A stretch of 64,000 bases of DNA, from sequence record PZ338878.1. One strand, 5' to 3'. This DNA comes from a phage. The stretch's first letter is position 1. Each line of letters begins with the position of its first letter. The notes below the pieces were generated by a model, which saw only the letters and a list, made by a program, of their open reading frames with translations, ran no database searches and was not told the origin of the DNA. Positions 5,193 through 22,632 of the stretch are shown here, piece by piece. The position numbers were made by a program, and so were the translations under genes.

Positions 5193-5828
5193 ATGGGAAT
5201 ACCATTTGATTTAAAACTTGATGGTTCTAACGATTTAGTAATGGTGGATGGTGATTTAACACTAACCACAACTAAAAGTGAAATTGCAGCACAGACGCTT
5301 GGAATAACACTTAGAACTTTCCGTGGAGAATGGTTCCTCAATTCTAATTTTGGGGTTCCATATCTGCAAGAGATTATTGGTGTTGCCAAGAAGAAAGAGA
5401 TTGTTGATCGCATTTTCTTATCAACTATCGCAAGTAATGTTTATATAGATAATATCAATTCCTATACATCCTCTTATGATAGAGATGATAGGTATTACTC
5501 AATGAACGTTACTGTTACAGTTGGTGAACAAGTTGTTAGTGCTCTATTCAGTACACAGCCGTCTGAAGAATATATCTATCCAGAAGCTGGTGATGATAAT
5601 GCAGCAATCACTTGTGAAGCATTTGAAATTGTTGAATCTGCAAATAGACTCTATCGCTTTATTAACATTGTTGGTCTTCCTAAAGATACTTATTCTACTT
5701 GGTGGAATGAGTGGTCTAACGAGGCATTGCTTGAAAAATACCTTGTTAACGAAGCCAATAAAGGTCTTGCAACCAATTACAATTATGCTATAACAGCAAC
5801 AATGGGAGCTACAAATAATAATGGCTGA
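5193..5828 (+). CDS. baseplate wedge protein (gp25/GPW-like)
   Basis: N-terminal region (MGIPFDLKLDGSNDLVMVDGDLTLTTT..., GEWFLNSNFGVPYLQEIIG) resembles GPW/gp25 family; gene order. Confidence 0.55.
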   Translation: MGIPFDLKLDGSNDLVMVDGDLTLTTTKSEIAAQTLGITLRTFRGEWFLNSNFGVPYLQEIIGVAKKKEIVDRIFLSTIASNVYIDNINSYTSSYDRDDRYYSMNVTVTVGEQVVSALFSTQPSEEYIYPEAGDDNAAITCEAFEIVESANRLYRFINIVGLPKDTYSTWWNEWSNEALLEKYLVNEANKGLATNYNYAITATMGATNNNG

Positions 5829-6294
5829 TTTAACTACAATCAAGGTGTCTGATCTACCTGTAACAACATCTGTTTCAGACACAGATTATTTTGTAACAGA
5901 TCAATCAGGCATCACTAAGAAAACATCATTACGTGTTCTTCTTGCGGGTGCTGGTGTTACACGAAATCGTCTTTCTGCAAGGGGTACTGTTACAAATACC
6001 CTAGCTTTAGATATTAGCACGGCAGAGTATTTCTCTGCCACTTTATCTAGTCCAACTTGCAGTATTTCATTTAGTAATGTTCCAGTTACAACTAACATTG
6101 TTCAAAACTTTACTCTATCCCTACGTCAAGGCAGTGGAGCAAATAAAGTAACGTGGCCTCAATCTGTTAAATGGAGTTTTGGTCGCGCTCCTGTTTTGAG
6201 TTATAAACAGGGAGCTACAGATATTTTTGAATTTGTTAGTTATGATAATGGAGCTACCTGGATAGGTAGTTTAGTGATGGCAGGAGTGATTTAA
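5821..6294 (+). CDS. fibre-like structural protein
   Basis: N-terminus (SDLPVTTSVSDTDYFVTDQSGITKKTSL) shares the motif seen at the N-terminus of the 11347 tailspike (TNLPETSKVNGSDYLVLDQPDKTVKSTVSNFL). Confidence 0.45.
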   Translation: MADLTTIKVSDLPVTTSVSDTDYFVTDQSGITKKTSLRVLLAGAGVTRNRLSARGTVTNTLALDISTAEYFSATLSSPTCSISFSNVPVTTNIVQNFTLSLRQGSGANKVTWPQSVKWSFGRAPVLSYKQGATDIFEFVSYDNGATWIGSLVMAGVI

Positions 6295-9178: not shown

Positions 9179-11338
9179 ATGAAACAGGCTATTTTTACTG
9201 TAACTCGAAATACGAGAGTAAATGCCAGTTCATTCAGCTATAAGACCGTCGATGGAACGGCGGTCGCTGGTAGAGATTATGTAGCTAAACAGGGAACAGT
9301 AACGTTCCCTTCTGATGCAGATTCTGCTACTGTGGTGGTTGATGTATATGAACGTCCGGCAAACTCTTTAGATCTTTATTTTACTCTTGAGATTACTAGC
9401 ATAAGTCAAAATAACATGATGATCAATGAAGAAATTCGTTGTGTTATTACGACTAATCAATCGAATACAACCCCGCTAACTTGGCCTGTTGTGAAGTCTA
9501 GAATGTTTGATCCTAAGTTTTGGACAATAGATTCTCAAGCAACAGAAAGTTGTTCTATTATCTCTAATGGTGATTCTTTCACAGCAAGAATGGTTAATAG
9601 GACAGTGGCTGGTCTTGCTGGGATTATTTGGTCAACTTACGATAAATATGATCACAAAGGATTAGGCTACCAAGAACATTCTGACTTAAGTAAAGAGAAA
9701 CTTTGGTTTAAAATGGAACTTAGTCAAGGTGTTCCTGGATTAAAAGAAGAAAAATTAATACCATCCTTAACAGTGACACTGAAGGATGAAACAGTTCATT
9801 ATGTATCTCTAAACTTTTATGCAGAAGAAGTTTCAGAAGATGGTAAGACAGCAACAATCAAATTAGATTTCTCAAACTTAAAATCGGGGCCAGAAAATGA
9901 TATTGTTGTTGACACTACACAAATAGATAATATGTTCTTCTCCTTGATCTCAACGAGGTATCAAGAAATTGAAGATATTATTCCTGTAGACAATGAGGAT
10001 CTTTCCTTTAAGTTTACCATACTGGAGCCTGATACTGGTTACAGTATGATGAATATGGGTAATTTAAATGTTCCAGCACACACCATAAGAATGTGTACAT
10101 CTTATGATGATATGTATAACCTGACCCCAGAGCGAATTATTTCTAACACCTACAGATTAGGTTATAGGGATATGATTAACCACTATAATGGTATGTCACA
10201 CTATTATCAGTTTAGTTGGGATGCTGGTTCTAATAAATGGGCTTTGAATAGAACAGAATATTTAAACCCAGCAACAGAAGCATGGTTTGATAATTTCCAC
10301 GCTAATGCAAAAGCTATGGGCTACACAGTAATGAATTCCTTAAGTTTTGAACTTATGAGTACAGTGTGTCCTGTAGAATGGGTACAACATACTTGGAATG
10401 ATGATCTTGCTGCTACAGGTTATGAGCCACCAAGTTATGTTTTATCTCCTTCAATTGATGAAGGGATGAATTATTTACAAGGTGTAATAAATAAAATAGC
10501 TTCTATATCCGCTGCTAATGATCTTCCGGTTATTATTCAGGTTGGTGAACCGTGGTGGTGGTATAACACAGCTACCAATCTACCGTGTATTTATGATTAT
10601 ACAACCAAAGTTGCATTTAATAATGAAACTGGATTGTATGCACAAGATGTTGGTACAGTTAAAAATTATAAAACTGGTACACCATATAATGAATATTATG
10701 CATTCCTATCTAAAACATTAGGACTGCGTGTTGCTAAATTTGCAACAGATACCAGATTAGCATATCCTGGAGCTAAAGTTACATTGTTACCATTTGTGCC
10801 ATCCATTTTGGGTAATGGTATGATGGAGTTTGTTAACTTCCCTAAAGATTATTATATCCCAGAGAACTTTGACTTTTATTGTTCAGAATGTTATGACTGG
10901 TTGTTGGAAGGTAAGATGGAAAAATCTTTCGACGCTATCACAATACCTAATGAGCAACTAGGTTTTAGTTACGATAAGATACATTATCTTGCAGGGTTTG
11001 TTCCAGACGCAACTCTAGCACCATTATATGGCTTTGATCCTGAATCAGACTACAGAACATATTTGTGGAAAATGATTATAGGTAATATTGTATTGAATGA
11101 TCAGAAGTTTGTTGGTTTATATCAATACATATGGGCTTACCCACAAATAATGCATGATTCAATAACTGTTCTTAATTCAAAATCCCAAGTGTTTTATATG
11201 GGTAATGTGCCTTTGAATTGCTACTTGCAAGATATCACTCTTAAACAGGTAAATGTTGAGATTGCCACTATAAGTGGAATTACATTAGCCACTAAATCTG
11301 GAGAAGATTTAGTAACAACACAAAAATTTTATATATAG
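9179..11338 (+). CDS. virion structural protein (baseplate/fibre-associated)
   Basis: 719 aa ORF tightly packed between structural genes. Confidence 0.45.
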   Translation: MKQAIFTVTRNTRVNASSFSYKTVDGTAVAGRDYVAKQGTVTFPSDADSATVVVDVYERPANSLDLYFTLEITSISQNNMMINEEIRCVITTNQSNTTPLTWPVVKSRMFDPKFWTIDSQATESCSIISNGDSFTARMVNRTVAGLAGIIWSTYDKYDHKGLGYQEHSDLSKEKLWFKMELSQGVPGLKEEKLIPSLTVTLKDETVHYVSLNFYAEEVSEDGKTATIKLDFSNLKSGPENDIVVDTTQIDNMFFSLISTRYQEIEDIIPVDNEDLSFKFTILEPDTGYSMMNMGNLNVPAHTIRMCTSYDDMYNLTPERIISNTYRLGYRDMINHYNGMSHYYQFSWDAGSNKWALNRTEYLNPATEAWFDNFHANAKAMGYTVMNSLSFELMSTVCPVEWVQHTWNDDLAATGYEPPSYVLSPSIDEGMNYLQGVINKIASISAANDLPVIIQVGEPWWWYNTATNLPCIYDYTTKVAFNNETGLYAQDVGTVKNYKTGTPYNEYYAFLSKTLGLRVAKFATDTRLAYPGAKVTLLPFVPSILGNGMMEFVNFPKDYYIPENFDFYCSECYDWLLEGKMEKSFDAITIPNEQLGFSYDKIHYLAGFVPDATLAPLYGFDPESDYRTYLWKMIIGNIVLNDQKFVGLYQYIWAYPQIMHDSITVLNSKSQVFYMGNVPLNCYLQDITLKQVNVEIATISGITLATKSGEDLVTTQKFYI

Positions 11339-11346
11339 GAGTAAAA

Positions 11347-13662
11347 ATGTCAACTACAATTACTAATTTACCCGAAACATCAAAAGTTAATGGTTCTGAT
11401 TACCTGGTTTTAGACCAACCTGATAAGACTGTTAAAAGCACAGTTTCCAACTTTCTTACTAACACTGGGGTGGTTGCTGCGGGGAGTTATACACCTAGAA
11501 CATTAGCCGATAGATTTGCTGATGTATTTAACGTTAAAGACTTTGGTGCAATTGGTGATGGAGTTACCGATGATACAGCAGCACTGCAAGCAGCAATAGG
11601 CGCAGCAGCAACTTCTGGTGTAAAACTGATATGGCCTGCTGGTACTTACTTGTTCACCAAACTTAGTAGCACTATTAGATATGGAGCATACAATTGGGAG
11701 GCAATAGGTCACGTAGAGCTTATCAGCACAGCTAACCCTGTCGGTGAAGCAGGTCAGGCTATACTACTAAGCGGAGCTTATAGTTCAGATCTGCTAAGTT
11801 TCGAGGAATATGATGTTAAGAAAGGTGATAGATCTATTACCTTAAATAAGGTACTTGATGCATCTACAAAAGACCTCATCGTGATTCGTAATAAGCACGT
11901 TGTACGAGGTGATCATCGTGGTAGCTGGCAAGAAGGTCAAATATCAGGTATTACAAAAGTAGAAGGAAATACCATTATGTTAGACCAGAATGCGCAGTAT
12001 TACTATAGGTCTGGTGGTAACTTCCATTTCACAGTTACTGGTGCGGAAAGTGGACGCAAGTTTTCTGCTGCTGAGTTTTCTGTTACCAACCCGCCACGTG
12101 ATGCATTATATCGTATCACAGGAACAACCGGTGTTAATGCTGGTATAACAAAGGTTGTAACAGCATATGATGATGCAACTAAGACCTTCACCATAGGTTC
12201 TGATGCAAACACAGGGTTCCCTAATACACCAGCAGTTGGTGATCAGTTCTTACTAGATAGGAAAGCAGAGGCTTGGTTGGTATACCCAGCAACTGTACAC
12301 ATTTCTGGTGACTTCGTACTTAAGACACAGCGTGGCCTTATTACAGATGCAGAAAAAGGTTCTCTCGCATGGGATGGACTTGTTCTAAGATATTGCCGTG
12401 ACAGCAAGATACAACTTGGTGGTGTACACAATTTCCCTAACTCAGGTGTTACAGTGAATATGTCATTGCGTGTTCATGTCAATGTAAGTAATATTACTGG
12501 GGCTAACAGGGTGTGGGATGGGTCAGGAGGCTCTGGTAATGCGGTATCCATTAACACCAGTAGCTTCTGCATAGTAGAAGGTCTGTCTTCGACAGGTTGC
12601 CGAAGGGGTGTAGATGTCACCGGTAGTAACTGGTCTAGTTTCTATAACATGATTAAAGACATCTCTGTGAGAGGGGGTGGCGTAGGTTTCACAGGTCAAT
12701 CTATCTTCCCACAGATAGGGTCTGCTGCTGATTGCTATGGAGTGGGCAGTCATGGCGGAGCTGTAGGTACAATGTATGATGGATGTGATTTAGTGGATTG
12801 CACTATACCATTTACCATACGTGGTTTTGATGAGAGTATTCAGAATAGTACAATTCGTGGGTATTGCTCTCAGCCAATTCGCCTGTATTACGCAAGCGGG
12901 TGCTACATTAACAATGTTACATACTCTGACGGTTTCACAGAAACTAAAGGGAGCACTAGCGAGTGGCAGACGATTACAACGACAGAGTACCGTAAGTTAC
13001 GACCAATTAGTTTCTTGACTATCACAGATACTTGGTCTTTTGAAACACCAACTGTAGTGGAGAATTGTGTTGCCAAATCTATTACTCGCTCTTTTGCTTA
13101 TGTAACAACAAAGGAAGAACAGCTAGATAACTTGGTACTTAAGGGTTGTATAGCTTATGTGGATAACTATGGCGCATCTACCACTGATGCAGCTTTCTTG
13201 CAAGTGATTGGTACTCCAGAGTTCCTAGGTAATATAGGTATGTTTGGTGGATGTGATCTTATTTTAGTTGGTTCAAACAACACAGTAAGCTCAAGTCAAA
13301 TGGTGAGAATTGCCTCCGCTTGTACTGGTATCATCCGCAGAAGTGAGACATTGTGGGAAGTAAGGATTAATTCAGGAGAGCAGAAGCGTGTGCCTCTTTC
13401 GAAAACATCTTCTATGCTTCTTGTAGATGTAGCTAACATGGGCAACCCAGGTAACTATAGTGCTTGCAATGTAATCATGGGTAAGGACGATGCAACCGAT
13501 TACTCGCCACTAAGCTCCTTCAACAAGAATAAGGTAGAGTTGCGAGATACTGGAGGGGCAACTGCCGGCACTCTTGCCTTATGGTTTTCTGGTAACAAGC
13601 TAGGAATAACTAATGGTTTCGGAGGAAAAGCTAATATACTTATAGATATTAGATCGTTCTAA
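11347..13662 (+). CDS. tailspike protein with pectate-lyase-like beta-helix domain (depolymerase 1)
   Basis: FGAIGDGVTDDTAALQAAI motif typical of pectate_lyase_3 / right-handed beta-helix tailspikes; fibre-type N-terminal motif. Confidence 0.7.
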   Translation: MSTTITNLPETSKVNGSDYLVLDQPDKTVKSTVSNFLTNTGVVAAGSYTPRTLADRFADVFNVKDFGAIGDGVTDDTAALQAAIGAAATSGVKLIWPAGTYLFTKLSSTIRYGAYNWEAIGHVELISTANPVGEAGQAILLSGAYSSDLLSFEEYDVKKGDRSITLNKVLDASTKDLIVIRNKHVVRGDHRGSWQEGQISGITKVEGNTIMLDQNAQYYYRSGGNFHFTVTGAESGRKFSAAEFSVTNPPRDALYRITGTTGVNAGITKVVTAYDDATKTFTIGSDANTGFPNTPAVGDQFLLDRKAEAWLVYPATVHISGDFVLKTQRGLITDAEKGSLAWDGLVLRYCRDSKIQLGGVHNFPNSGVTVNMSLRVHVNVSNITGANRVWDGSGGSGNAVSINTSSFCIVEGLSSTGCRRGVDVTGSNWSSFYNMIKDISVRGGGVGFTGQSIFPQIGSAADCYGVGSHGGAVGTMYDGCDLVDCTIPFTIRGFDESIQNSTIRGYCSQPIRLYYASGCYINNVTYSDGFTETKGSTSEWQTITTTEYRKLRPISFLTITDTWSFETPTVVENCVAKSITRSFAYVTTKEEQLDNLVLKGCIAYVDNYGASTTDAAFLQVIGTPEFLGNIGMFGGCDLILVGSNNTVSSSQMVRIASACTGIIRRSETLWEVRINSGEQKRVPLSKTSSMLLVDVANMGNPGNYSACNVIMGKDDATDYSPLSSFNKNKVELRDTGGATAGTLALWFSGNKLGITNGFGGKANILIDIRSF

Positions 13663-13752
13663 TGCCACTAATCAAATCAGTTAAGCAAAGTGCTGTACGC
13701 CAGAACACACAAGAGGTTATTCAGTCAGGACGTGACACTAAACAGGTTATAA

Positions 13753-13775
13753 GACCCCTCTTCGGAGGGGTTTAC
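13753..13775 (+). terminator. terminator-like hairpin
   Basis: ACCCCTC-TTCG-GAGGGGT followed by TTT, downstream of the tailspike stop. Confidence 0.45.
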
Positions 13776-13796
13776 TAGAAAAACAAAGAGGTACTT

Positions 13797-13946
13797 ATGA
13801 ACGAATTATTCTACCAAGGCGGTATTGCCCCAGGTACTACTGCCATTAGTCTTAGTGCTGCTGTACTTGTGCATTCAGCGGGTTCTGTAGACCTTGGGGA
13901 ATTAGCTGTATCTTGTGATTTAAAAAGTAATGAGAACGCACCATGA
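13797..13946 (+). CDS. small hydrophobic protein (49 aa)
   Basis: ATG 6 nt after AAAGAGG; hydrophobic core IAPGTTAISLSAAVLVHSAG; stop overlaps the start of the next ORF; not in ORF track because under 60 aa. Confidence 0.3.
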   Translation: MNELFYQGGIAPGTTAISLSAAVLVHSAGSVDLGELAVSCDLKSNENAP

Positions 13947-14188
13947 GAAAATTTTTAATAGGTATGTTTTGTACATATCCTGATAATAAAGTCAGTTCTA
14001 CTAAAGTTTGGAATGCTATTGGTATGATTGTTATGTCCAGTATGTTTATTTATTTGGGAATTGATAAAGAAATTCCTGAATGGATGGGCTGGGCTTTTGT
14101 TTTTATGATCACACCATCCAGACTAATGAAGAATTTAATAGATTTACGTTGGGGCAGATCACCTGCCCCTGATAAGGAGGATAACTAA
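13943..14188 (+). CDS. small membrane protein (two predicted TM helices)
   Basis: 81 aa with two hydrophobic stretches (IGMIVMSSMFIYLGI, WMGWAFVFMITP); ATGA coupling to downstream gene. Confidence 0.4.
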   Translation: MRKFLIGMFCTYPDNKVSSTKVWNAIGMIVMSSMFIYLGIDKEIPEWMGWAFVFMITPSRLMKNLIDLRWGRSPAPDKEDN

Positions 14189-15675
14189 TGGCAGATTATG
14201 GTTTAACAGATGCTGGTTTTGTAATTCCAACGTTTGATGATATTTTAAATAATTATATGACAGCATTGAAAAACACTTTCGGTGCAGATACAGCTACATC
14301 TGAAGATACTGTCTTTGGTCAACTGTTTCGTATTATTGCATATACAGATTACACACTTTGGGAAGGTATGCAAGGTGTTTACAATACCCAAACCTTAGAT
14401 GGTGCAGAAGGTATTTACCTTGATGAAATTTTCTCTAAAAGGGGTTTTTATCGTAAAGCTGCTTCTGCTGGTAGTGGTTATGCTTATGTTAAATCTAACA
14501 ATAAGGCAGCTTGGACTTATGAACTAAGCACAGATGTTTATTTTAATGCCGATAACGATTTGACATATTATGTCAGTGCACCAACAATGTTGAATGCTAA
14601 GATTGGAGCATATACCATTTCTAAAGCAAACGCAACAGCTTCTGGTGAAACTTCTATTACTTTCTACATTCAAAGTGCTATTGATGGTGGTCTTAACAGT
14701 AAAACATTAAGTCCTAGCAATACAAACTTTATTGTAGATCTCACGAATTTCATTAAAGCTAACGTATCAACAACAGATCGTGCTTTAGTATGGAATGATG
14801 CTAGTAATGTTTACATGGGTTATAATCCAGAAGATAATGTTAATCCAATAGGTCTAGTAACACCAGTGAAATTTTATGCATCTATTGCCATTGGTACAAA
14901 ATGGAGTGAAATTCCAGTTACGTGTTCAGACGTTGGTTATAATCCAGTAGGTACAGAAAGTATTACAGGTATTTCTTCAACGTTTACAGGCTTTTTAGAT
15001 ACAGGTAACTTCTATCCGTTCTCTCCAGGTACAGATGTTGAAACAGATGCAGAATTCCGTTCTCGTTTCAATGATAATATGGATGAAGCTAATGCTGCTA
15101 CTCGTGCTGCTATTGTTAAAGCTCTATTACTGACAGACGGTGTGACAAAGGTTAAGATTTATGATAACCCTACACTACACGATCAGGAACATGCTCCAGC
15201 TATGACATTTCAGACTATTGTGTATGGTGGTACAGCAGAAGAAGTTGCACAGGTTATTTATAATACTAAGCCTATTAACACCTTAACTTATGGTACGACA
15301 GCAATTACTATCATAACAGAAGATGGTGGTCAAGAAGTAATTCGTTTTTCTCCTGGTGATAATGCGGAATACTCACTTAAACTGGTATATCAAACTGGCA
15401 ATGGTAGTGTGTTAAGTACAACAGAAAGGGAAAATATTGTTTCTGCTCTTGCAAACTTACAGGCTTATTTTGAATTAGGCTCAACAGTAACTAACGATCA
15501 GATAAAAGGTGTAATTTATTCTGCACTTGCGTTCGGACGCTTGACTTCTCTCCGTGTTTATGTTAAACTTAATACTGAGGATGACAGTAAATATAATGAG
15601 GGAGATATCACTCCAGCGTACAATGTTGTACCATCCTTTGACCTTGATAATATTTCCTACGAGTACGGAGTCTAA
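14188..15675 (+). CDS. baseplate J-like protein
   Basis: 495 aa; position after gp25-like and before gpI-like/fibre genes; N-terminal region resembles gpJ/gp47 family. Confidence 0.5.
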   Translation: MADYGLTDAGFVIPTFDDILNNYMTALKNTFGADTATSEDTVFGQLFRIIAYTDYTLWEGMQGVYNTQTLDGAEGIYLDEIFSKRGFYRKAASAGSGYAYVKSNNKAAWTYELSTDVYFNADNDLTYYVSAPTMLNAKIGAYTISKANATASGETSITFYIQSAIDGGLNSKTLSPSNTNFIVDLTNFIKANVSTTDRALVWNDASNVYMGYNPEDNVNPIGLVTPVKFYASIAIGTKWSEIPVTCSDVGYNPVGTESITGISSTFTGFLDTGNFYPFSPGTDVETDAEFRSRFNDNMDEANAATRAAIVKALLLTDGVTKVKIYDNPTLHDQEHAPAMTFQTIVYGGTAEEVAQVIYNTKPINTLTYGTTAITIITEDGGQEVIRFSPGDNAEYSLKLVYQTGNGSVLSTTERENIVSALANLQAYFELGSTVTNDQIKGVIYSALAFGRLTSLRVYVKLNTEDDSKYNEGDITPAYNVVPSFDLDNISYEYGV

Positions 15676-15677
15676 AA

Positions 15678-16307
15678 ATGGCAGTGAGTGTTGACCATGT
15701 GACAACGTGGGATAGTATCAATGAAGATGTTAAAGACCTACTGATTGAAGATTTTAAATCTTCTCCGAACATTGTCAAACTACTCTATATCATTTCTAGC
15801 GAAAAACAAAAGATAGATCAGGCAATGATCTATCTTGCCAAACACCGCTTAATCTCTACTGCAACTGGTAAGTATTTAGATCTTATTGGTGAAGAGATGG
15901 GGATGGAGAGAAATGGTGCTACGGATGAAGAGTATCGTACAATATTAAAAATCAGGGCTTATCGTGTTGCGTCTTCTGGTACGCGAGATGATATCATTGA
16001 TATGTTCGCTCGTTTTACAGGAACAGAAAAAGAAACGATCAATACATACGTTGGATTAAATAAAACATTCGACGTATTCTTTTATAATTTGTGTCTACAA
16101 TCCGATCAGGCAGTAGCACAGTTACTTAACGTTTTCCCGATCCTAAGTAGTTATCGCTTAGGTGCGAAAGCGGGTGCAGCCTTTGGTTTCACTTCCTATT
16201 ATGCCACAAAGCCACCTCATGGTATAGGTGGTTTAGGTTCTCTTTACACAGAGGCTGAAGGAGATGATACAGGGCGAATGACTATGCTGATAGCTCAAAT
16301 AGAATAA
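15678..16307 (+). CDS. baseplate protein (gpI-like by position)
   Basis: 209 aa directly downstream of the J-like gene. Confidence 0.4.
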   Translation: MAVSVDHVTTWDSINEDVKDLLIEDFKSSPNIVKLLYIISSEKQKIDQAMIYLAKHRLISTATGKYLDLIGEEMGMERNGATDEEYRTILKIRAYRVASSGTRDDIIDMFARFTGTEKETINTYVGLNKTFDVFFYNLCLQSDQAVAQLLNVFPILSSYRLGAKAGAAFGFTSYYATKPPHGIGGLGSLYTEAEGDDTGRMTMLIAQIE

Positions 16308-16320
16308 GGAGTTACTCTTA

Positions 16321-17301
16321 ATGGCAAAGCCACAATACTACCCTGACTGGGCGACACAAACAGTAACCCTCCCAGGAACGGGAAACACAAACAAGATTAG
16401 ACCAAAAGAAACCATCCGTAATGTTGGTATGGATTTTGGTCAGATTATGACTTGTGAAGAAATGAACTGGATCTTGAACAATATTGGGTCTTGGATTCGC
16501 TATATGCAAGATGAATTCTTCCCAACATTGCCTACTACATATCTTCCTATAGTCGGTACTAAAATTACAATGGCAGGTGATGCTACAGGTGAAGTTACAT
16601 GGAATGGTAATGCTGCTGTAACATTATCTATTCAAGTCGTAGATAATAGTCATAATCACTTATCAGCTAACATTACAGACGCAACATCAAACCAAGTTGT
16701 AGGAAATGTCCTTGTTAAGCGTGATAATGGTGGTGCTATCTATGCAGGTGATATTTACACTTGTGGTACAGGTGCTACAGATCCTGCAACATTATTTTTT
16801 AGAAACTATAACGGACAAACAGTAGGCAATATGTCTTCTGAACCAGGTGCAGGTGGTCAACTCTATATTTATAGAATAAATCCATCTACTGGAGGAACAT
16901 CTTGTGGAGTCCGTTTGTATGATGCAGGTTATGTTTTAATAGACAACCCTCGTTCTAATTCTGGTCAAGATACTGGTAATGGTAATGCTCTTGTAAGATT
17001 AGATTATCTTAACTCAAGACTAAACTCATTGCAAAGTACACTGCAAAATAATATTAACAACGTTAATAGCAACTTGCAAGGCCAAATTAATAACATTAAC
17101 AATAGAGTTTCTTCTGTTGTGTCTTCTATCCGTCTAGGTACACGTATTAAAGCTGGTGTATCTGAATCTCCTTTCTATGCTGGTCACGTGATCACAGGCT
17201 GGGGTTTTGGTGATAAGAAAGAACTTCGTGGTGCTTGGTATTGGTCTGCTCCGCTACAATATTACATTAATGGTAGGTGGATAACAGTAACCAACGTTTA
17301 G
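16321..17301 (+). CDS. tail fibre protein
   Basis: 326 aa; Gly/Thr/Asn-rich beta region and C-terminal coiled coil (LNSRLNSLQSTLQNNINNVNSNLQGQINNINNRVSSV). Confidence 0.55.
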   Translation: MAKPQYYPDWATQTVTLPGTGNTNKIRPKETIRNVGMDFGQIMTCEEMNWILNNIGSWIRYMQDEFFPTLPTTYLPIVGTKITMAGDATGEVTWNGNAAVTLSIQVVDNSHNHLSANITDATSNQVVGNVLVKRDNGGAIYAGDIYTCGTGATDPATLFFRNYNGQTVGNMSSEPGAGGQLYIYRINPSTGGTSCGVRLYDAGYVLIDNPRSNSGQDTGNGNALVRLDYLNSRLNSLQSTLQNNINNVNSNLQGQINNINNRVSSVVSSIRLGTRIKAGVSESPFYAGHVITGWGFGDKKELRGAWYWSAPLQYYINGRWITVTNV

Positions 17302-17313
17302 TAAGGAGAACAC

Positions 17314-17865
17314 ATGAAAAAAGATGTTATTTACACTGGCTTTGAACTATATCAACCAGAATTGACAGAAGAAAATGTCATCTATCTTTCAATAGGTGCT
17401 GGTTTTCTTAAAGATAAAGATGGTAATGATTGGTACGAAATTCAGAAATATTTATCCAAAAATTACCCTGATGCCTATTTCTTAACTCTAGATCACAATA
17501 ATGTAGTTGTTGCAGCTACGAAAGATGTTTCTACATATTTTCCCGCTGGTCTTACTGTTCTTGTAACATACAATGTTCCAGATAAAATAGAAGAAGAAAG
17601 CAACCTAGGATCGTGGAGATATGACAATGGTAAGTTTATTTCTCATAATGGGTTTGCAATAGAAGATGCCAACCTTAAAATGGAAAAAGAATTAACTTGG
17701 GCCACAAATCAAATATCTGCAATTCAAGATTTAGAGGAATTACAAGGTTTATCTGAAGAACAAAAAGATTGGTTAGGAAAAGTTAAACTATATCGTGCAA
17801 CACTGATTCAAATTAACGTTGAAGATGCACCTAATATAACTTGGCCTACAAGACCTAAGAAATAG
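17314..17865 (+). CDS. tail fibre assembly chaperone (Tfa-like)
   Basis: 183 aa immediately after the fibre gene; C-terminus (DWLGKVKLYRATLIQINVEDAPNITWPTRP) resembles the Tfa/gpG C-terminal signature. Confidence 0.5.
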   Translation: MKKDVIYTGFELYQPELTEENVIYLSIGAGFLKDKDGNDWYEIQKYLSKNYPDAYFLTLDHNNVVVAATKDVSTYFPAGLTVLVTYNVPDKIEEESNLGSWRYDNGKFISHNGFAIEDANLKMEKELTWATNQISAIQDLEELQGLSEEQKDWLGKVKLYRATLIQINVEDAPNITWPTRPKK

Positions 17866-17874
17866 GGGTAATGT

Positions 17875-18216
17875 ATGGAGCTAACAGAAGTATGGGATAT
17901 CGCTAAAGAGGCGATTATCCCTCTTATTGGTGTAATCTGGGTGGTCTTCAAACAGAAGATAGATGATATAGCAAGTGATTTGGATAAAATGGAAGACAAA
18001 TACCGTGAACTAGAAAAGAAGTTGGTGTTTGTTGAATCCACTTATGCTACCAAAGCAGAACTTGCTCAAATGCTTAACCAGATCAACTCTACATTAATGG
18101 CAAATAATACTGCCTTAGAACAGAAGATTGAAAAAATAATGGATTTAAAAAATGCTCCTGTTCAATTAATGCTAGAGGAGATTACGAAGCGCACACAAAG
18201 TAAGGACAAAAATTAA
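17875..18216 (+). CDS. hypothetical coiled-coil protein
   Basis: 113 aa; N-terminal hydrophobic segment then charged helix; ATGA-type coupling to next gene. Confidence 0.4.
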   Translation: MELTEVWDIAKEAIIPLIGVIWVVFKQKIDDIASDLDKMEDKYRELEKKLVFVESTYATKAELAQMLNQINSTLMANNTALEQKIEKIMDLKNAPVQLMLEEITKRTQSKDKN

Positions 18217-20630
18217 TGGCGAATTTTCCAACATATCCTGCTACGACACTAGAACAAGGTGTTGATCTGGTTATATTCTCGTCTAACCAGATGCATGATG
18301 TTATTAACGGGGATGCTACAGCAACTGTAGAAACCGAAACAGGTTTAATACCTACACTGCGTAAAGCACTTGTTGATAACTTCTTCTTTAAGAGTCCTGT
18401 TGCTTGGTCAGCAGGATCAACTGAAACTGTATTTAACCAGTTACGTTATTTTGAAAACGGTATCTTGAGTGGGTACTACTATGCTCCATCTGCCACTACT
18501 GCGAACCCTGTACCTATGCAGGGTACACCTGTAGGAGACAGTAACTGGACTCTGTATGCTCTTAAAACTGAACAGTTAGCTTCAGATGTGTATCCTTGGT
18601 ATTTTAAAGGTGCTACAGGGTATGAGACAGAAATCAGTCCTCCTTATATCTTTGATAATGCTATTGTCACCATTAACGGTGTAATTCAGATTCAGGGTGA
18701 AGCATTTACTATCAAAGATAGTAAAATTATTCTGGCAGAACCATTAGGTTTAGATCCGTCTACTGGTCTACCTAACAAATTGTTTGCTTTTATTGGTAAA
18801 ACAACAGCCTCTACTTCTTACGTAGAGAAAAACCTTTTGTCATCTACCACTGGTGCAGCAATGGTTGGTCTTCCATCTGGAGGCAATCTGTTACAAGCTC
18901 AATACTTTGTAACGCCTGAGCAGTTTGGTGCAATTGGTGATGGAGTTACCGATGATACTCAAGCAATTCTAAAAACCATTACTTTCGCTAACACGAATAA
19001 CATTCAAGTACGTGCAGATAAGAATTATAGATTCACAAGCTCAATTGCTATGTCTGGTATTCGTTGGTATGGTGGTACATTCACTGGTAACGGTGGAACA
19101 ATGATTTCTACTGTGTCCTGTTGGATTGAAAACGTTCGCTTTGAAAAATGTTATGTTAAGATGTTAGGTGGTGATTGCCGATTCTATCGTAATATCTTCT
19201 CCAACGCAACATCTACAGCAGCATTTTTAATGCAAGCAATGACAAGTGAAGGTACGTTGGACTTCAGTTACAACGAAATGTATGGTTGTAAATATGCGAT
19301 CCTGCAACAAGGTACTGGAGAAGTAATGACCTATGGGCGTTACTCTAACAACTACATTCACGATATCAAAGGTGATGCTATTGAACTTAACGTAGTTCAA
19401 AAACACTACACTGAAGGTTTGATCATCGAGAATAACCACATTGCTAACGTAGATGCTTCTGGACAAGGGGCAAACTGGGGTATTGGTATTGGTGTAGCAG
19501 GTAGTGGCCCATATGGTGTTGATGCTCCTGATTCACAATATGTACGTAACTTCAGTATCGTTGGAAATAGGGTTTACAATTGCCGTCAATGTTTACACGT
19601 TGAAATGGGTAAAAACTTCACTATACGTGACAACGAAGTTTATCCTAACACAGCAGTTTCAACAGGTACAGGTTTAACTACTTGTGGTGTTGCATTATAC
19701 GGATGCCAAGATTTTGAAGTTGATGGTTTAACTGGTTATCTGCTTAATGATCCGTCTGTTTCAACACGCATGGTCTTTATTGACTGGGGTGTTAACAGTG
19801 GAAGATATGCGGGGCCACCAATTAACTTTACAATTAAGAATTTGGATATTCCAGAATCTTCAATTGAAATTGCAACGGCTGGATCAGATGCCTGGGAAAA
19901 CTCTACAATTGTTAGTAACATCAATTGTAATGTTTTTAAATGGCGTGGATTACCATCTAGCTCTACCTTTAATAATATTCGTTGCCGTAGTATTGACTTT
20001 ATTGGTCAACACGGAAGCGGAGAAGGAAGTGGTGGCGGTTTCTATACTCGCAGCCAATTCACTTATATGAAGTGGGTAGGATGTACAGCACTTAGCGGAG
20101 ATGAAACAACAGTTTCTTTTGCTAAAATCTACACGGATCGTTGCGATCAGGTTGGAAATAACTTTGGTGTTCCAACTGCTGTTGATGGTACAGGTCATCG
20201 TGGGCCAGTCTTAACCACTATTTCTGAACAATATTTTACAGATTATGATGAATTCCCAGGTGGGCGTGACTTCCCTACTGGAACAGTTATTCATTGTGCA
20301 AGCGGTAAAAAACACGTTGTTACAGTAGGTGGTGCTTTCTTTAGTAATAATGAGAAAATAAAAGCAACTGTTACAGGTCAAACCTATCTACAGTCTAATG
20401 CTTTAAACTGGGCTAGTAATGGCTACGCTAAAGCGGCAGGTACTAAGATTGTTATTCCAGGTGCAGGAGCAAATGGTGGCGATCTTGTGACAACTATAGC
20501 ACGTGCTACGTATGTGACAAATAGTTTGTACACAATAGATATTGCAGATCCAATTGTAACACCTACAGCAGAGAATACACAAATTAAAGCTCTGAACCCT
20601 GTTACTTTTGTTACTGTCAATAATGCTTAA
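18216..20630 (+). CDS. tailspike protein with pectate-lyase-like beta-helix domain (depolymerase 2)
   Basis: FGAIGDGVTDDTQAILKTI motif; 804 aa; distinct sequence from the 11347 tailspike outside the motif. Confidence 0.7.
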   Translation: MANFPTYPATTLEQGVDLVIFSSNQMHDVINGDATATVETETGLIPTLRKALVDNFFFKSPVAWSAGSTETVFNQLRYFENGILSGYYYAPSATTANPVPMQGTPVGDSNWTLYALKTEQLASDVYPWYFKGATGYETEISPPYIFDNAIVTINGVIQIQGEAFTIKDSKIILAEPLGLDPSTGLPNKLFAFIGKTTASTSYVEKNLLSSTTGAAMVGLPSGGNLLQAQYFVTPEQFGAIGDGVTDDTQAILKTITFANTNNIQVRADKNYRFTSSIAMSGIRWYGGTFTGNGGTMISTVSCWIENVRFEKCYVKMLGGDCRFYRNIFSNATSTAAFLMQAMTSEGTLDFSYNEMYGCKYAILQQGTGEVMTYGRYSNNYIHDIKGDAIELNVVQKHYTEGLIIENNHIANVDASGQGANWGIGIGVAGSGPYGVDAPDSQYVRNFSIVGNRVYNCRQCLHVEMGKNFTIRDNEVYPNTAVSTGTGLTTCGVALYGCQDFEVDGLTGYLLNDPSVSTRMVFIDWGVNSGRYAGPPINFTIKNLDIPESSIEIATAGSDAWENSTIVSNINCNVFKWRGLPSSSTFNNIRCRSIDFIGQHGSGEGSGGGFYTRSQFTYMKWVGCTALSGDETTVSFAKIYTDRCDQVGNNFGVPTAVDGTGHRGPVLTTISEQYFTDYDEFPGGRDFPTGTVIHCASGKKHVVTVGGAFFSNNEKIKATVTGQTYLQSNALNWASNGYAKAAGTKIVIPGAGANGGDLVTTIARATYVTNSLYTIDIADPIVTPTAENTQIKALNPVTFVTVNNA

Positions 20631-20670: not shown

Positions 20671-22632
20671 GTGATTTTAACACGTCCAAATAGTGCCATT
20701 GCAGACATGGTAGAGTCTCGCTATAGAAAGCGTAGAAGTTTTGCAAGTGGTTTTACCTTAAGAGATGCTCGTGAAGCATTGCTCTTTGAAGCTGACGGTA
20801 ACTACTATCAGTGGAAAGGTTCTCTACCTAAAGTTGTACCTGCTAACTCTACTCCTACATCTACTGGAGGGATTTCAGATACAGCTTGGAAAAATGTGGG
20901 TAATGCAGATGACATTGCTCAAATAGAATCAGAATTAGATGCTATTGAAGCTGAAATTGAAGATCTTAGAGAATCCATCCCAGAAGCTGGTAAATCAGCT
21001 TACCAGATTGCCGTAGACAATGGTTTCCAAGGTACTGAGACACAGTGGTTGGCTTCTTTAAAAGGTGATCCAGGTGCTCCATTAAAGCTATTAGGGACAC
21101 TATCTAATACCAACCAATTACCTACAAGTGGAAACAATGCAGGGGATGCATGGATTGTAGGCGAGAATATGTATGCTTGGGATGGTACTGCTTGGAGAAA
21201 AGTAAACTCACAGGGGCCAGAAGGTAAATCTGCTTATGAAGTATGGCTTGCAGCAGGAAATGAAGGTACAGAACTAGATTATCTTGCTTCAATTAAAGGT
21301 GATAAAGGGGAGCCTGGCCCAGAGGGGCCACAAGGTGTGCCAGGTAATAATGCTAATGGTTTTGATTACCAAGGCGCAGCTAATTCCGTTTCAGATCTTC
21401 CTTCTGCATCTCATGGAAACACATCTCAAGCATGGAGTGTTGGTACATATCTATACGTGTCAAACGGTGTAGAATGGATCAATATGGGTGCTATAGTGGG
21501 GCCAAAAGGAGATAAAGGCGACAAAGGTGATAAGGGTAACACTGGTGATTCAGCTTATCAAGTCTGGTTAAATGCTGGTAACGTTGGTACTATTGACGAA
21601 TATATTGCCTCTCTGAAAGGAGAAAAAGGTGATAAGGGAGACAAGGGTGATCAAGGTGCACAGGGTATACAAGGCTTGACGGGGCCAACTGGTGCAGGGT
21701 TGACCATTATTGACATTCTGACTAACACTTCTGAACTACCACAAACTGGAGAAGAGGGTGATGGTTATCTGATCAATAATGAACTTTGGGTCTGGTTGCA
21801 AGGAGCCACAGAGTGGACAAATGTTGGTCGTTTAGCTGGTACTCCAATCACTGCAAAAGGACACGTTGCGTCTGCAAGTGCACTTCCTCCTACAGCTAAT
21901 TACGGTGATGCTTATCTGACGGAAGATACAGGTCATCTTTACATTTACACCTATGATGAACAAACTCAAACTGCTGAATATGTAGATATGGGTAGTTTGA
22001 AAGGTGATAAGGGTGAAAAAGGTGACGCTGGTACTAACGGTACAGACGGTGCAACTTGGATTGTTAAAACAACAGATCCAATCTCTAGTGATGGTAAACA
22101 AGGTGATTATGCCTTTAATATCTCCACGGGCGAGGTGTTCTTAAAAACATCTGCAACTGTCTGGACTTCTCAAGGTACACTACCTAGTATCACAGATGCA
22201 CCTAGTGACGGTAAGACTTATGCTCGTAAAGATGGGGCATGGGAAGAACTCACTAATTCTGTAGATGGTCAAGATATAGTTCCAACAAAAGTAACAACTA
22301 ATTTTATAGAGGTTACAGCATATACCAACAATTCTGTTACAGGGGACTGGACACCTCCAGGAACACATAACATGAATGTGTTGAATCTTACTGGTAACGC
22401 TACTATAAAAGCATGGCCTGGTGTCGAAGATAGTACAAAACCTAAACCATTCTCTGCAATAGTTTATCTTATCCAAGATGCCACTGGAGGTCGTACTGTT
22501 ACTTTAGATCCATCTTACAAAGTAATTGGTTCCAGTGATATTAATACAGATCCTAACGGAGTAACAATACTACAACTAACATATTGTGGTGTTGGCGATT
22601 ACGTGGATGCTATTGTTGCTAAACGCACATAA
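20671..22632 (+). CDS. collagen-like tail fibre protein
   Basis: Gly-X-Y triplet runs (GPKGDKGDKGDKGNTGD; GEKGDKGDKGDQGAQGIQGLTGPTG) and a reiterated module SAY(Q/E)(I/V)W..AGN.GT..EY(L/I)AS(L/I)KG. Confidence 0.7.
   Translation: MILTRPNSAIADMVESRYRKRRSFASGFTLRDAREALLFEADGNYYQWKGSLPKVVPANSTPTSTGGISDTAWKNVGNADDIAQIESELDAIEAEIEDLRESIPEAGKSAYQIAVDNGFQGTETQWLASLKGDPGAPLKLLGTLSNTNQLPTSGNNAGDAWIVGENMYAWDGTAWRKVNSQGPEGKSAYEVWLAAGNEGTELDYLASIKGDKGEPGPEGPQGVPGNNANGFDYQGAANSVSDLPSASHGNTSQAWSVGTYLYVSNGVEWINMGAIVGPKGDKGDKGDKGNTGDSAYQVWLNAGNVGTIDEYIASLKGEKGDKGDKGDQGAQGIQGLTGPTGAGLTIIDILTNTSELPQTGEEGDGYLINNELWVWLQGATEWTNVGRLAGTPITAKGHVASASALPPTANYGDAYLTEDTGHLYIYTYDEQTQTAEYVDMGSLKGDKGEKGDAGTNGTDGATWIVKTTDPISSDGKQGDYAFNISTGEVFLKTSATVWTSQGTLPSITDAPSDGKTYARKDGAWEELTNSVDGQDIVPTKVTTNFIEVTAYTNNSVTGDWTPPGTHNMNVLNLTGNATIKAWPGVEDSTKPKPFSAIVYLIQDATGGRTVTLDPSYKVIGSSDINTDPNGVTILQLTYCGVGDYVDAIVAKRT
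21290..21700 (+). repeat. collagen-like G-X-Y coding repeat blocks
   Basis: Three blocks of GGN-GAT/AAA-AAR type triplet codons at about 21299-21346, 21498-21548 and 21617-21697. Confidence 0.7.

Follow-up and report, generated by a model that had tools for sequence, protein, structure and literature searches.

The DNA analyzed here is read, with a probability of about 0.85, as the host-recognition baseplate region of a phi92-like phage that carries two independent beta-helix tailspikes, one of which is a colanidase and the other a swapped-in spike with a different presumed target. The window, i.e., the whole 64,000-nucleotide stretch of phage DNA that was analyzed (PZ338878.1), was identified by gene order and by identity to type members as the tail/baseplate module of a Justusliebigvirus, a phi92-like myovirus. 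A new receptor-binding cassette sits here in an otherwise known system, and the pattern of the module is ordinary.

Layout of the tail and baseplate module

Using megablast, the window matched 177 phage records, chiefly Justusliebigvirus and Phapecoctavirus, and the best of these were 96 to 99% identical over 74 to 77% of the query, a share that corresponds to the backbone. The genes for gp134 to gp153 are collinear, with identical gene order in ECGD1 and phi92, and the order shared with phi92 runs from the tape measure to the 939-aa fiber. Except for the 771-aa protein and the C-terminal 311 residues of the 939-aa fiber, every protein of the module is 98.5 to 100% identical to its phi92 or ECGD1 counterpart. 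For phi92, this range holds for gp140 to gp142, gp144 to gp151, and residues 1 to 628 of the last fiber. The gp143 slot holds the endosialidase endoN92 in phi92, whereas here it holds a pectate-lyase-like beta-helix, and the last fiber is one open reading frame here but is split into gp152 and gp153 in phi92. Intact open reading frames were found for gp141, gp142, the gp143 slot, gp147, gp150, and gp151. A tRNA scan across the window found none. The features are listed in Table 1.

Table 1. Features of the host-recognition region (positions in the window)
Feature	Coordinates	Strand	Evidence
gp140 ortholog, 157 aa, small tail-fiber-like protein	5821..6294	+	100% identity to phi92 gp140; phrog_9017 'tail fiber protein' E 1e-69
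gp141 ortholog, 958 aa, large conserved tail fiber/spike candidate	6294..9170	+	99.3% to phi92 gp141; phrog_2871 'tail protein'
gp142 ortholog, 719 aa, Calx-beta + NCTSP_N + NCTSP TIM-barrel domain	9179..11338	+	98.7% to phi92 gp142
771-aa tailspike, gp143 (fiber I) slot: conserved anchor + new beta-helix receptor-binding body	11347..13662	+	
Anchor, aa 1-45, MSTTITNLPETSKVN...TGVVxA, nearly invariant in gp143-slot proteins whatever the body	11347..11481	+	alignment A2
Linker and motif, aa 46-77 (...TPRTLADRFADVFNVKDFGAIGDGVTDDT), second-level recombination junction	11482..11577	+	comparison with L013
Receptor-binding, presumed catalytic cassette, aa 78-771: right-handed beta-helix + C-terminal beta domain	11578..13662	+	
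GC-rich hairpin AGACCCCTC-TTCG-GAGGGGTTT, terminator-like, weak T tract	13752..13773	+	by eye; right-hand cassette junction
Small ORF, 49 aa, conserved 3' of gp143 slot	13797..13946	+	read from sequence; same ORF in L010
gp144 ortholog, 81 aa, small membrane protein	13943..14188	+	phrog_1322 E 5e-27; 96-100% to phi92 and ECGD1
Baseplate wedge: gp145 (495 aa, Baseplate_J) + gp146 (209 aa)	14188..16307	+	Pfam PF04865; 99.4-100% identity
gp147 ortholog, 326 aa, short tail fiber (fiber III)	16321..17301	+	99.4-100% identity; phrog_4465 'tail fiber protein'
gp148 tail-fiber assembly chaperone (183 aa) + gp149 (113 aa)	17314..18216	+	phrog_136 'tail fiber assembly protein' E 4e-44; 99-100% identity
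Colanidase tailspike, 804 aa, phi92 gp150 ortholog	18216..20630	+	PDB 6E0V, phi92/ECGD1 identity, phrog_6117
gp151 ortholog, 653 aa, collagen-like fiber with Tail_spike_N anchor	20671..22632	+	PF18668 E 4e-21, Collagen E 5e-8; 98.5% to phi92 gp151
939-aa fiber: Big_2 Ig-like, central N4-tail-protein-like/SGNH-like region, C-terminal GTA head-spike-fiber-like domain	22672..25491	+	

The original prediction, made from the DNA letters and the open reading frames, had counted at least four receptor-binding candidates: the two tailspikes, a collagen-like fiber, and an esterase-like fiber. This number stands but is an undercount, since orthologs of gp140, gp141, gp142, and gp147 are also encoded. 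The gp141 ortholog had no match in a Pfam search; its ECGD1 counterpart is annotated as a potential glycosidase or carbohydrate-binding-module fiber. The gp142 ortholog matched Pfam PF23845 (E 1.9e-81), PF23844, and PF03160, where NCTSP denotes the 'non-contractile tail sheath protein' families, and it also matched phrog_15324 'tail sheath and receptor binding protein'. The gp145-gp146 wedge has been assigned by cryo-EM in the same study that identifies gp147 as fiber III (PMC13450770). A Pfam Caudo_TAP match was found in the gp148 ortholog of L010, a second Justusliebigvirus contig, and ECGD1 annotates the counterpart of the 49-aa open reading frame as a 150-bp 'tail spike protein'.

The collagen-like nature of the 653-aa protein was borne out by its Collagen and Tail_spike_N Pfam matches. 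In the 939-aa fiber, a Pfam Big_2 domain was detected, as was NCBIfam GTA_spike_fiber over aa 694 to 863 (E 1e-18). Residues 1 to 628 of this fiber equal ECGD1 gp161, and residues 629 to 939 occur in BME3, alia, SD2, and others. An esterase-like character, as proposed for this fiber, is weakly suggested by a subthreshold SASA match in Pfam (E 0.009; 16 bits versus a cutoff of 24.8). Of the SGNH blocks, block III occurs as WGQGENDA, block I has the sequence GQDN or GGDN and lacks a serine, and the candidate block V histidine is not conserved in P0248. The AlphaFold model of the esterase region had a pLDDT of 46, and the homolog search behind it found two proteins only; in Foldseek, this low-confidence model matched N4 tail complex chains strongly (E 1e-13) and SGNH-esterase folds weakly, the latter serving as hints only. 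An esterase-like fiber would agree with the 'glycan deacetylase tail fiber' described in phi92-like phages and N4 (PMC8594841).

Several co-expressed glycan-degrading spikes on one phage represent the same concept as in phi92, whose multivalent adsorption apparatus was reported by Schwarzer et al. in 2012, as related in PMC11984140 and PMC8594841, with cryo-EM in PMC13450770. Broad or multistep host recognition, which had been suggested for this DNA, is likewise the published model for phi92-like phages, in which the tail is a multivalent 'Swiss army knife'.

Two beta-helix tailspikes with a common cap motif

Both tailspike open reading frames were found where they had been predicted (Table 1), and so was the motif said to link them: FGAIGDGVTDDT is located at aa 66 to 77 of the 771-aa protein and at aa 237 to 248 of the 804-aa protein, and G[AS]xGDGxxD[DN] has only these two matches in a six-frame translation of the window. 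Rather than a chance match, this motif is a hallmark of the N-terminal cap in pectate-lyase-like beta-helices: PF12708 matches the 771-aa protein there (aa 61 to 106; 46.6 bits, above the gathering cutoff of 27), and many beta-helix enzymes of solved structure align over these residues. End_N_terminal also fell on the motif of the 771-aa protein, at a subthreshold 18.3 bits versus 26.3. Within the motif, 35 nt at positions 11542 to 11576 (plus strand) are identical to positions 18924 to 18958 in the colanidase gene (35/35), and the shared segment contains the rare codons ACC and GGA. This exact DNA identity, rare codons included, favors the idea that the two spikes are recent paralogs that arose by duplication within the genome and that the motif is a remnant. 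However, the spikes differ elsewhere, as had been claimed: in BLASTP, the alignment was confined to 31 residues at and near the motif (16/31, E 2e-5), and the structural match between the two has 13% identity. In addition, the colanidase is 99 to 100% conserved across the genus, yet the nearest relatives of the 771-aa body lie in other phage families, and a single base separates the linker relatives L010 and L013 from the 35-mer of the colanidase gene. A duplication origin, which we consider highly improbable, was rejected on the basis of the 31-residue BLASTP limit, the genus-wide colanidase identity, and the 13% structural identity. The two proteins would instead be independent trimeric beta-helix tailspikes at the baseplate periphery, each with its own N-terminal anchor (aa 1 to 45 of the 771-aa protein and approximately aa 1 to 180 of the 804-aa protein).

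Its sequence identifies the 804-aa protein as the colanidase tailspike gp150 of phi92, with an identity of 99.0% to phi92 gp150 over the full length and of 100% to the ECGD1 'colanidase tailspike'. PDB entries 6E0V and 6E0W ('colanidase tailspike gp150') span aa 180 to 804, and 6E0V matches these residues at 1,422 bits and ~98.7% identity, with ~8 substitutions within the 625 crystallized residues. The protein also matched phrog_6117 'colanic acid degradation' (E 2e-270), contains WcaM homology at aa 358 to 552 (E 9e-29), and ends in a TSP_Ig-like domain (Pfam). The WcaM-like core and the TSP_Ig-like C terminus are common to phi92 gp150, and there is no difference of note between what is the same protein in two phages. 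According to a 2025 study, as cited in PMC13450770, gp150 hydrolyzes the beta-1,4 Glc-Fuc bond of colanic acid. Because the 804-aa protein is 99.0% identical to gp150 and ~98.7% identical to the 6E0V fragment, and because the enzymology of gp150 is published, it can be regarded through the gp150 literature as a proven depolymerase. One of the two spike substrates is colanic acid, the M-antigen exopolysaccharide, and not capsule K antigen or O-antigen. The proposal that the spikes target capsule and/or O-antigen therefore does not hold for the 804-aa spike.

The 771-aa protein, placed by sequence in the gp143 slot, has the invariant 45-aa baseplate anchor. The N-terminal anchor conserved in gp143-slot spikes of the Stephanstirmvirinae (MSTTITNLPETSKVN...GVV) is present in it, and 38 positions within aa 1 to 45 were invariant in an alignment of 12 proteins with differing bodies (endosialidase, beta-helix, and others; alignment A2). 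Matches confined to the anchor (96% identity, 6% coverage) carry bodies of diverse Pfam content. Phi92 gp143 (endoN92) and the other gp143-slot spikes share the anchor and the genomic slot with the 771-aa protein, and many of them contain a GDGxTDDT-type motif after the anchor, but their bodies are unrelated to it; in tblastn, no GenBank Stephanstirmvirinae phage covered more than 14% of the 771-aa protein. Sialidase and stalk domains (PF12217, PF12219, and PF12195), the C-terminal S74 chaperone (PF13884), and the P22 head-binding domain (PF09008) were not found in the 771-aa protein by Pfam. Fiber I is assigned to gp143 in PMC13450770, in which the virion position of gp143-slot proteins is itself inferred.

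Downstream of the anchor, aa 49 to 767 matched phrog_14558 'tail spike protein' (E 4e-55). The AlphaFold model of the 771-aa protein (monomeric, based on 13 sequences, and of moderate confidence, with a pLDDT of 75.8) has a beta-helix fold, and Foldseek returned beta-helix proteins: the best matches were phi297 gp61, LKA1 gp49, K1 lyase, AP22 gp54, and the Sf6 tailspike, with low TM-scores of 0.35 to 0.47, and the HK620 tailspike was also found. The lyase-type phage depolymerases LKA1 gp49 (4RU4), phi297 gp61 (4RU5), K1 lyase (7W1C), AP22 gp54 (4Y9V), and K5 lyase (2X3H) are 11 to 19% identical in sequence to the 771-aa protein; the likeness is to the predicted monomer, with no common catalytic motif demonstrated. 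Eight residues (R419, R420, D423, H469, R492, E496, Y515, and D528) were invariant in homologs down to 23% identity (alignment A1). Single-sequence and profile searches of the PDB aligned the N-terminal cap only, and no catalytic residues could be assigned. Two different polysaccharide specificities, as predicted from the DNA, agree with the identity of the 804-aa colanidase and with the modeled 771-aa beta-helix. A second, different glycan specificity is a sound inference for the 771-aa spike, because its nearest solved structures are phage depolymerases.

Probable exchange of the 771-aa cassette

The 771-aa body was absent from 50,697 GenBank phage records searched by tblastn and blastn, and an exact look-up of the protein in the contig index gave no record. 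Relatives were found at 96% in L010, at 91% amino acid and 88% nucleotide identity in a Vectrevirus-like (K1-5-like podovirus) contig (P0003 on L014), at 60% identity over 93% in the gp9-position tailspike of a P22-like E. coli prophage (P0004), which lies directly after mnt/arc, and at ~48% in an Aeromonas siphophage-like contig. Among 1.84 billion representatives, 129 clusters at 50% identity matched the body at E ≤ 1e-3 and 28 matched at E ≤ 1e-30. P0003, the second tailspike in this K1-5/SP6-like phage, has the same body starting 9 nt before the motif, but it has a short N terminus (35 aa) unrelated to that in the 771-aa protein, and its gene neighborhood is typical of a 44-kb podovirus, with lysis genes upstream and a NUMOD4 endonuclease downstream. 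P0004, a prophage counterpart of the gp9-type spikes of Lederbergvirus (P22, Sf6, and HK620), shares the whole receptor-binding body with the 771-aa protein; the Sf6 and HK620 tailspikes are of the same fold class. Only this body is shared, however, since P0004 contains PF09008 whereas the 771-aa spike lacks it and sits on a myovirus baseplate.

The edges of the cassette are sharp. DNA identity to ECGD1 (98.1%) and phi92 (96.4%) stops at position 11475, the end of the anchor. L013, which encodes a different, endosialidase-like body (P0012), remains 90.5% identical up to position 11576 and diverges right after the motif. On the right, identity to L014 ends at position 13750 and identity to the ECGD1 backbone resumes at position 13754, so that the junctions are at 11475, at 11576, and within the interval from 13662 to 13754. 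The GC content of the cassette is 43.0% versus 37.7% for the window. These data indicate that the 771-aa body was most probably acquired by horizontal transfer. Three recombination points probably serve to move the cassette from phage to phage: the anchor end, the motif-coding DNA, and the hairpin just 3' of the gene. A scan for consensus terminators and promoters in the intergenic region 3' of the 771-aa gene found nothing and did not call the hairpin, which resembles the downstream 'motif three' of PMC10408124. For Justusliebigvirus, the same study reports that receptor-binding domains are swapped, and it describes conserved DNA motifs at the flanks.

Proposed targets and roles of the spikes

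What the 771-aa spike recognizes was weighed among three possibilities. As a lyase, the spike may cleave capsule (K antigen) or some other acidic exopolysaccharide common across O serogroups, in which case it would functionally replace the phi92 endosialidase; we hold this to be plausible, at somewhat less than even odds. The slot carries the capsule depolymerase endoN92 in phi92, and in the K1-5-like Vectrevirus contig the 91%-identical body belongs to the second, terminal spike, at a position that carries capsule depolymerases in such podoviruses. Alternatively, it may be an O-antigen-specific endoglycosidase of the P22/HK620/Sf6 type that hydrolyzes one E. coli O serogroup and extends the host range by that serogroup, a tentative reading to which we give about a third of our credence. 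P0004, the closest nonmyovirus homolog with full genomic context, is the gp9-position tailspike of a P22-like prophage, both Sf6 and HK620 tailspikes were returned by Foldseek, and the behavior of Eryne, which is also a Justusliebigvirus, is that of a phage with an O16-specific spike. Prophage spikes of this sort usually match the O-antigen of the host (PMC10408124). However, the prophage spike occurs at 99.8 to 99.9% identity in 4 of 5,426 complete E. coli genomes, and these four share no common O type. From their O-antigen loci, ECCWS199 is O86 with a wzy pseudogene and LH10-b-1 is O21, while XH992 and LS45 are not O21 and do not appear in a list of 60 O86 genomes (20 more are unlisted). Assigning a serogroup to the 771-aa spike from the lysogens was rejected because their O types are discordant. 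This discordance fits a target other than O-antigen, and receptor-binding subtypes of mixed serogroup have been read as probably not O-antigen specific (PMC10408124).

Folds also bear on the choice. The top structural neighbors are lyases and not endorhamnosidase-type hydrolases, which argues against an O-antigen endoglycosidase, and, judging from the nearest folds, the spike is somewhat more likely to work by beta-elimination, as a lyase on an O- or K-antigen that contains uronic acid, than by hydrolysis. On the other hand, fold ranking cannot separate mechanisms, and a lyase need not have a capsule as its target, because the top match, LKA1 gp49, is an O-antigen lyase. A purely binding role for the 771-aa protein, as a catalytically inactive beta-helix that attaches to a glycan or protein receptor, is improbable. 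Some beta-helix tailspikes are without demonstrated activity and no catalytic residues are identified here, but charged and aromatic residues are strongly conserved on successive rungs, a pattern typical of an active-site groove, and the closest structural neighbors are all enzymes.

Under the preferred reading of two independent spikes, the 804-aa colanidase would hydrolyze colanic acid and allow the virion to cross the slime layer. The 771-aa spike would fill the exchangeable 'fiber I' slot, which is occupied by the endosialidase in phi92, and its body would bind and cleave a different E. coli surface polysaccharide, so that the phage reaches the lipopolysaccharide core, to which the short fiber gp147 would bind irreversibly. 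More speculatively, and we think this unlikely as a whole, the 771-aa body founds a small family of depolymerases that act as lyases on an E. coli glycan not tied to one O serogroup. Its cassette would be mobile among myoviruses, K1-5-like podoviruses, P22-like prophages, and Aeromonas siphophages, with the FGAxGDGVTDDT-coding DNA as a portable left-hand junction and with exchange inside the genome by way of the 35/35 copy in the colanidase gene.

Earlier work has already described the multivalent system and its variable slot, as well as the exchange of cassettes with prophages and the flanking recombination motifs. The sharp junctions provide one further clean example of exchange at a beta-helix cap motif, conceptually nothing new. 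Multivalent spikes make phi92-like phages candidates for therapy and for the production of enzymes, and the rare new receptor-binding cassette extends the catalog of E. coli glycan-targeting modules. If its substrate is found, the 771-aa spike could serve host-range engineering, serotyping, or capsule stripping.

The tail module and its receptor-binding proteins

By megablast against 50,697 phage records, 11347-20630 matched 177, mostly Escherichia phages belonging to Justusliebigvirus and Phapecoctavirus. The top records were 96-99% identical, yet their query coverage was just 74-77%. The gene order in the window was that of the annotated regions of phages ECGD1 and phi92: tape measure, hub, central spike, gp140-gp143, wedge gp145/146, gp147 with its chaperone, gp150, gp151, and terminal tail protein (phi92 gene products). 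Individual proteins were 98.5-100% identical to those of phi92 or ECGD1, with two exceptions: a 939-aa fibre and a 771-aa spike, the latter matching only over aa 1-45. The collinear genes and these identities indicate that the window is, by homology, the tail module of a phi92-like myovirus.

A multivalent adsorption apparatus (a "nanosized Swiss army knife") is textbook for phi92-like phages. The original prediction, which read two beta-helix spikes and two further fibres as broad or multistep host recognition, is essentially right but already published as the phi92-type apparatus; only the receptor-binding cassette that this phage carries at gp143 is new. Its figure of at least four receptor-binding candidates is conservative, as orthologues of gp141, gp142, and gp147 also lie in the module, and its collagen-like fibre is the gp151 orthologue. 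Both spike genes were found as predicted (see table).

Features of the tail module in window coordinates
Feature	Coordinates	Extent	Location and content
gp141 orthologue		958 aa	Upstream of the spikes
gp142 orthologue	9179-11338	719 aa	Upstream of the spikes; Calx-beta, NCTSP_N, NCTSP TIM-barrel; PF23845, E 1.9e-81 (Pfam)
771-aa spike	11347-13662 (+)	771 aa	gp143 slot
Motif 35-mer, first copy	11542-11576	35 nt	FGAIGDGVTDDT at aa 66-77 of the 771-aa spike
Cassette	11578-13662	aa 78-771	Receptor-binding body of the 771-aa spike
GC-rich hairpin	13752-13773		Right-hand junction
gp147 short fibre and chaperone			Between the two spikes
804-aa spike	18216-20630 (+)	804 aa	gp150 orthologue
Motif 35-mer, second copy	18924-18958	35 nt	FGAIGDGVTDDT at aa 237-248 of the 804-aa spike
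WcaM-homologous core	19287-19871	aa 358-552	Within the 804-aa spike
gp151 orthologue			Downstream of the spikes; collagen-like (Pfam)
939-aa fibre	22672-25491	939 aa	Downstream of the spikes; Big_2 (Pfam); C-terminal GTA head-spike-fibre-like domain, E 1e-18
939-aa fibre extension	24556-25491	aa 629-939	C-terminal part of the 939-aa fibre

The 804-aa spike shared 99.0% of its residues with gp150 and all of them (100%) with the ECGD1 protein. Over aa 180-804 it aligned with the Phi92 colanidase tailspike protein gp150 (PDB 6E0V/6E0W; 1422 bits, ~8 substitutions); its PHROGs class was "colanic acid degradation" (E 2e-270), and Pfam placed a TSP_Ig-like domain at its C terminus. The core was homologous to WcaM (NCBIfam TIGR04004, E 9e-29, well below the equivalog cut-off). 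WcaM is encoded by the last gene of the cluster with which the host makes colanic acid, and the homology points either to common ancestry or to WcaM being a colanic-acid glycanase in its own right. As relayed in PMC13450770, a 2025 biochemical study found that gp150 hydrolyses colanic acid at its beta-1,4 Glc-Fuc linkage. The 804-aa spike is a known enzyme.

The 939-aa fibre matched ECGD1 gp161 over aa 1-628. The remaining extension, which carries the GTA-like domain and has a higher GC content (42.6%), was missing from ECGD1 gp161 and phi92 gp152/153. It recurred in about 20 records besides BME3, alia, and SD2, at 98.5-99.5% identity among those listed for Justusliebigvirus (SD2, BME3, alia, PHB05, and others). 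By this comparison, the extension is a second variable point of the module. The earlier label of an esterase-like fibre is reasonable given the "glycan deacetylase tail fiber" described as common to N4 and these myoviruses (PMC8594841), but it is unproven: the SASA esterase match in the central region was sub-threshold (Pfam), and the expected Ser nucleophile was not evident there on sequence inspection. A low-confidence model of this region (pLDDT 46) matched N4 tail complex chains (9LC0 and 9YF5; Foldseek E 1e-13) and, weakly, SGNH esterases. The gp142 orthologue and the 939-aa fibre each bear a resemblance to the same large family of phage tail proteins, and both matched phrog_15324, "tail sheath and receptor binding protein." An N4-type glycan receptor has been reported for Justusliebigvirus, and these two proteins may be candidate recognisers of it.

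The 771-aa spike: anchor, body, and substrate

The 771-aa spike stands where phi92 encodes gp143, the endosialidase endoN92, which a cryo-EM study inferred to be the tip of "fibre I" (PMC13450770). Among 12 aligned gp143-slot proteins, the N terminus was nearly invariant (38 invariant positions in aa 1-45, MSTTITNLPETSKVN...GVVxA) and the bodies that follow were unrelated. In a 5.8-billion-protein set, the 45-residue anchor recurred in other proteins at 91-98% identity and ~6% query coverage, joined to widely varying Pfam content that included endosialidase domains, beta-helices, SGNH hydrolases, sialidase, and a GDPD domain. Judged from these alignments, the gp143 slot is where the genus varies its receptor-binding protein.

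Among GenBank phages, tblastn and sensitive blastn searches of the phage collection found no match to the body past the N terminus except 34% identity to aa 42-211 in Vibrio phages. Close relatives were drawn from the 5.8-billion-protein set. P0001 (771 aa, 96%) has the same gene neighbourhood, on a second contig of Justusliebigvirus. Two others, P0002 and P0003 (742 aa), each match the 771-aa spike at 91%; P0003 comes after the lysis genes and closes a K1-5-like Vectrevirus contig. P0004 (867 aa, 60%) carries a P22 head-binding domain and belongs to a P22-like E. coli prophage, in which its gene comes after mnt/arc. P0005-P0011 (47-49%) have other anchors, and P0009 follows the tail-tip protein on a contig that shares 83% identity with Aeromonas phage AsC4_1. 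When aa 78-771 were searched exhaustively with HMMER against 1.84 billion cluster representatives, only 129 clusters scored E <= 1e-3 and 28 scored E <= 1e-30. As far as these searches reach, the body is absent from the GenBank phage genomes in the collection and belongs to a rare, small family. The GC content of the cassette is 43.0%, against 37.7% for the window. Homologous spike genes in two contigs have NUMOD4/HNH homing-endonuclease genes nearby, one directly downstream in the Vectrevirus-like contig (L014, 5113-5487) and one upstream in the tail region of the P22-like prophage (L003, 1-251); such endonucleases may promote cassette movement.

The AlphaFold2 model of the 771-aa spike (13 sequences; mean pLDDT 75.8, pTM 0.72) was nearly all beta from residue 60 onwards. 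Structure prediction had been proposed to define catalytic grooves; the nearest folds in the PDB were phage tailspikes and depolymerases: phi297 gp61 (Foldseek E 4.5e-14), LKA1 gp49, K1 capsule lyase, AP22 gp54, Sf6 tailspike, and HK620. Residues invariant in homologues down to 23% identity, among them R419, R420, D423, H469, R492, E496, Y515, and D528, sit on successive rungs and look like a candidate active-site groove. Sequence and profile alignments to PDB yielded no equivalent known catalytic site on which to superpose them.

The target of the spike may be an O-antigen or another surface polysaccharide. The P0004 spike gene was present in 4 of 5,426 complete E. coli genomes at 99.8-99.9% identity. 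ECCWS199 (NZ_CP032237.1) has an O86 cluster and LH10-b-1 an O21 cluster; XH992 and LS45 are not O21, and neither was among the 60 O86 genomes listed. The O types of these lysogens are thus discordant. The ECCWS199 wzy annotation records a frameshift and an internal stop (L007, 19480-20878), which could reflect O-antigen loss in the lysogen or an assembly error. The same mixed-O pattern was reported for several receptor-binding subtypes, Justusliebigvirus ones included, for which a receptor other than O-antigen, e.g., K antigen, was suggested (PMC10408124). At 60% identity, the specificities of P0004 and the 771-aa spike may differ anyway. Because of the endosialidase history of the slot, the Vectrevirus homologue, and the lyase-like structural neighbours, we lean slightly toward an acidic capsule-like polysaccharide.

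The shared motif and the cassette junctions

The two spikes share FGAIGDGVTDDT, as predicted, and six-frame translation of the window gave no other copies of this type of motif. They also differ elsewhere, as had been stated: the BLASTP alignment was limited to 31 residues surrounding the motif, 16 of them identical. PF12708 matched aa 61-106 of the 771-aa spike (46.6 bits; cut-off, 27), and PDB alignments to this stretch included glucanases, mannuronan epimerases, polygalacturonases, and Sf6 tailspike. By homology, FGAIGDGVTDDT is the signature by which pectate-lyase-like beta-helices mark their N-terminal cap, and a chance match is ruled out.

The motif DNA was identical at 35/35 nt between the two genes (TTTGGTGCAATTGGTGATGGAGTTACCGATGATAC), with two rare codons among them, ACC (used for 9% of Thr) and GGA (used for 22% of Gly). 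From the codon usage of the window, the probability of the same codons given the same residues is ~3e-4. The 35-mer occurred in 51 GenBank phages, in single copy per genome and each time within the colanidase gene; in contigs L010 and L013 the Thr codon was ACT, giving a 34/35 match. The 35-mer may be a patch left by gene conversion, or it may serve recombination within the genome. Four 146.4-kb records labelled "Campylobacter phage" (MG065639, MG065645, MG065656, and MG065689) contain it, and Campylobacter-labelled records were also present among the megablast matches to the Justusliebigvirus module; those with the 35-mer are probably mislabelled coliphage genomes.

Identity with the ECGD1 and phi92 backbone ended at 11475, the end of the anchor, and returned at 13754 (ECGD1) or 13948 (phi92). 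Contig L013, whose gp143-slot protein P0012 has an endosialidase-like body and an S74 chaperone, was 90.5% identical up to 11576, the final base of the 35-mer, then completely divergent until 13663, the first base past the stop codon. Homology with the Vectrevirus-like L014 began at 11533, nine bases 5' of the motif, and continued at 88% through to 13750. The right-hand junction coincides with the GC-rich hairpin. In these genera, recombination has been proposed to be concentrated in conserved DNA on either side of the receptor-binding domain, part of which is a terminator-like motif downstream (PMC10408124), and the junctions and downstream hairpin of the present phage agree with that proposal.

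P0012 (L013, 3001-5607) came from SRR21291532 and P0001 (L010/L011) from SRR21291458 and SRR21291533. These neighbouring-accession runs contain Justusliebigvirus contigs with a common anchor, linker, and motif (aa 1-77) and two different bodies, the 771-aa beta-helix and an 868-aa endosialidase-like spike with an S74 chaperone. As a naturally occurring pair, the P0012 and P0001 contigs lend themselves to a test of whether cassettes are exchanged at the motif.
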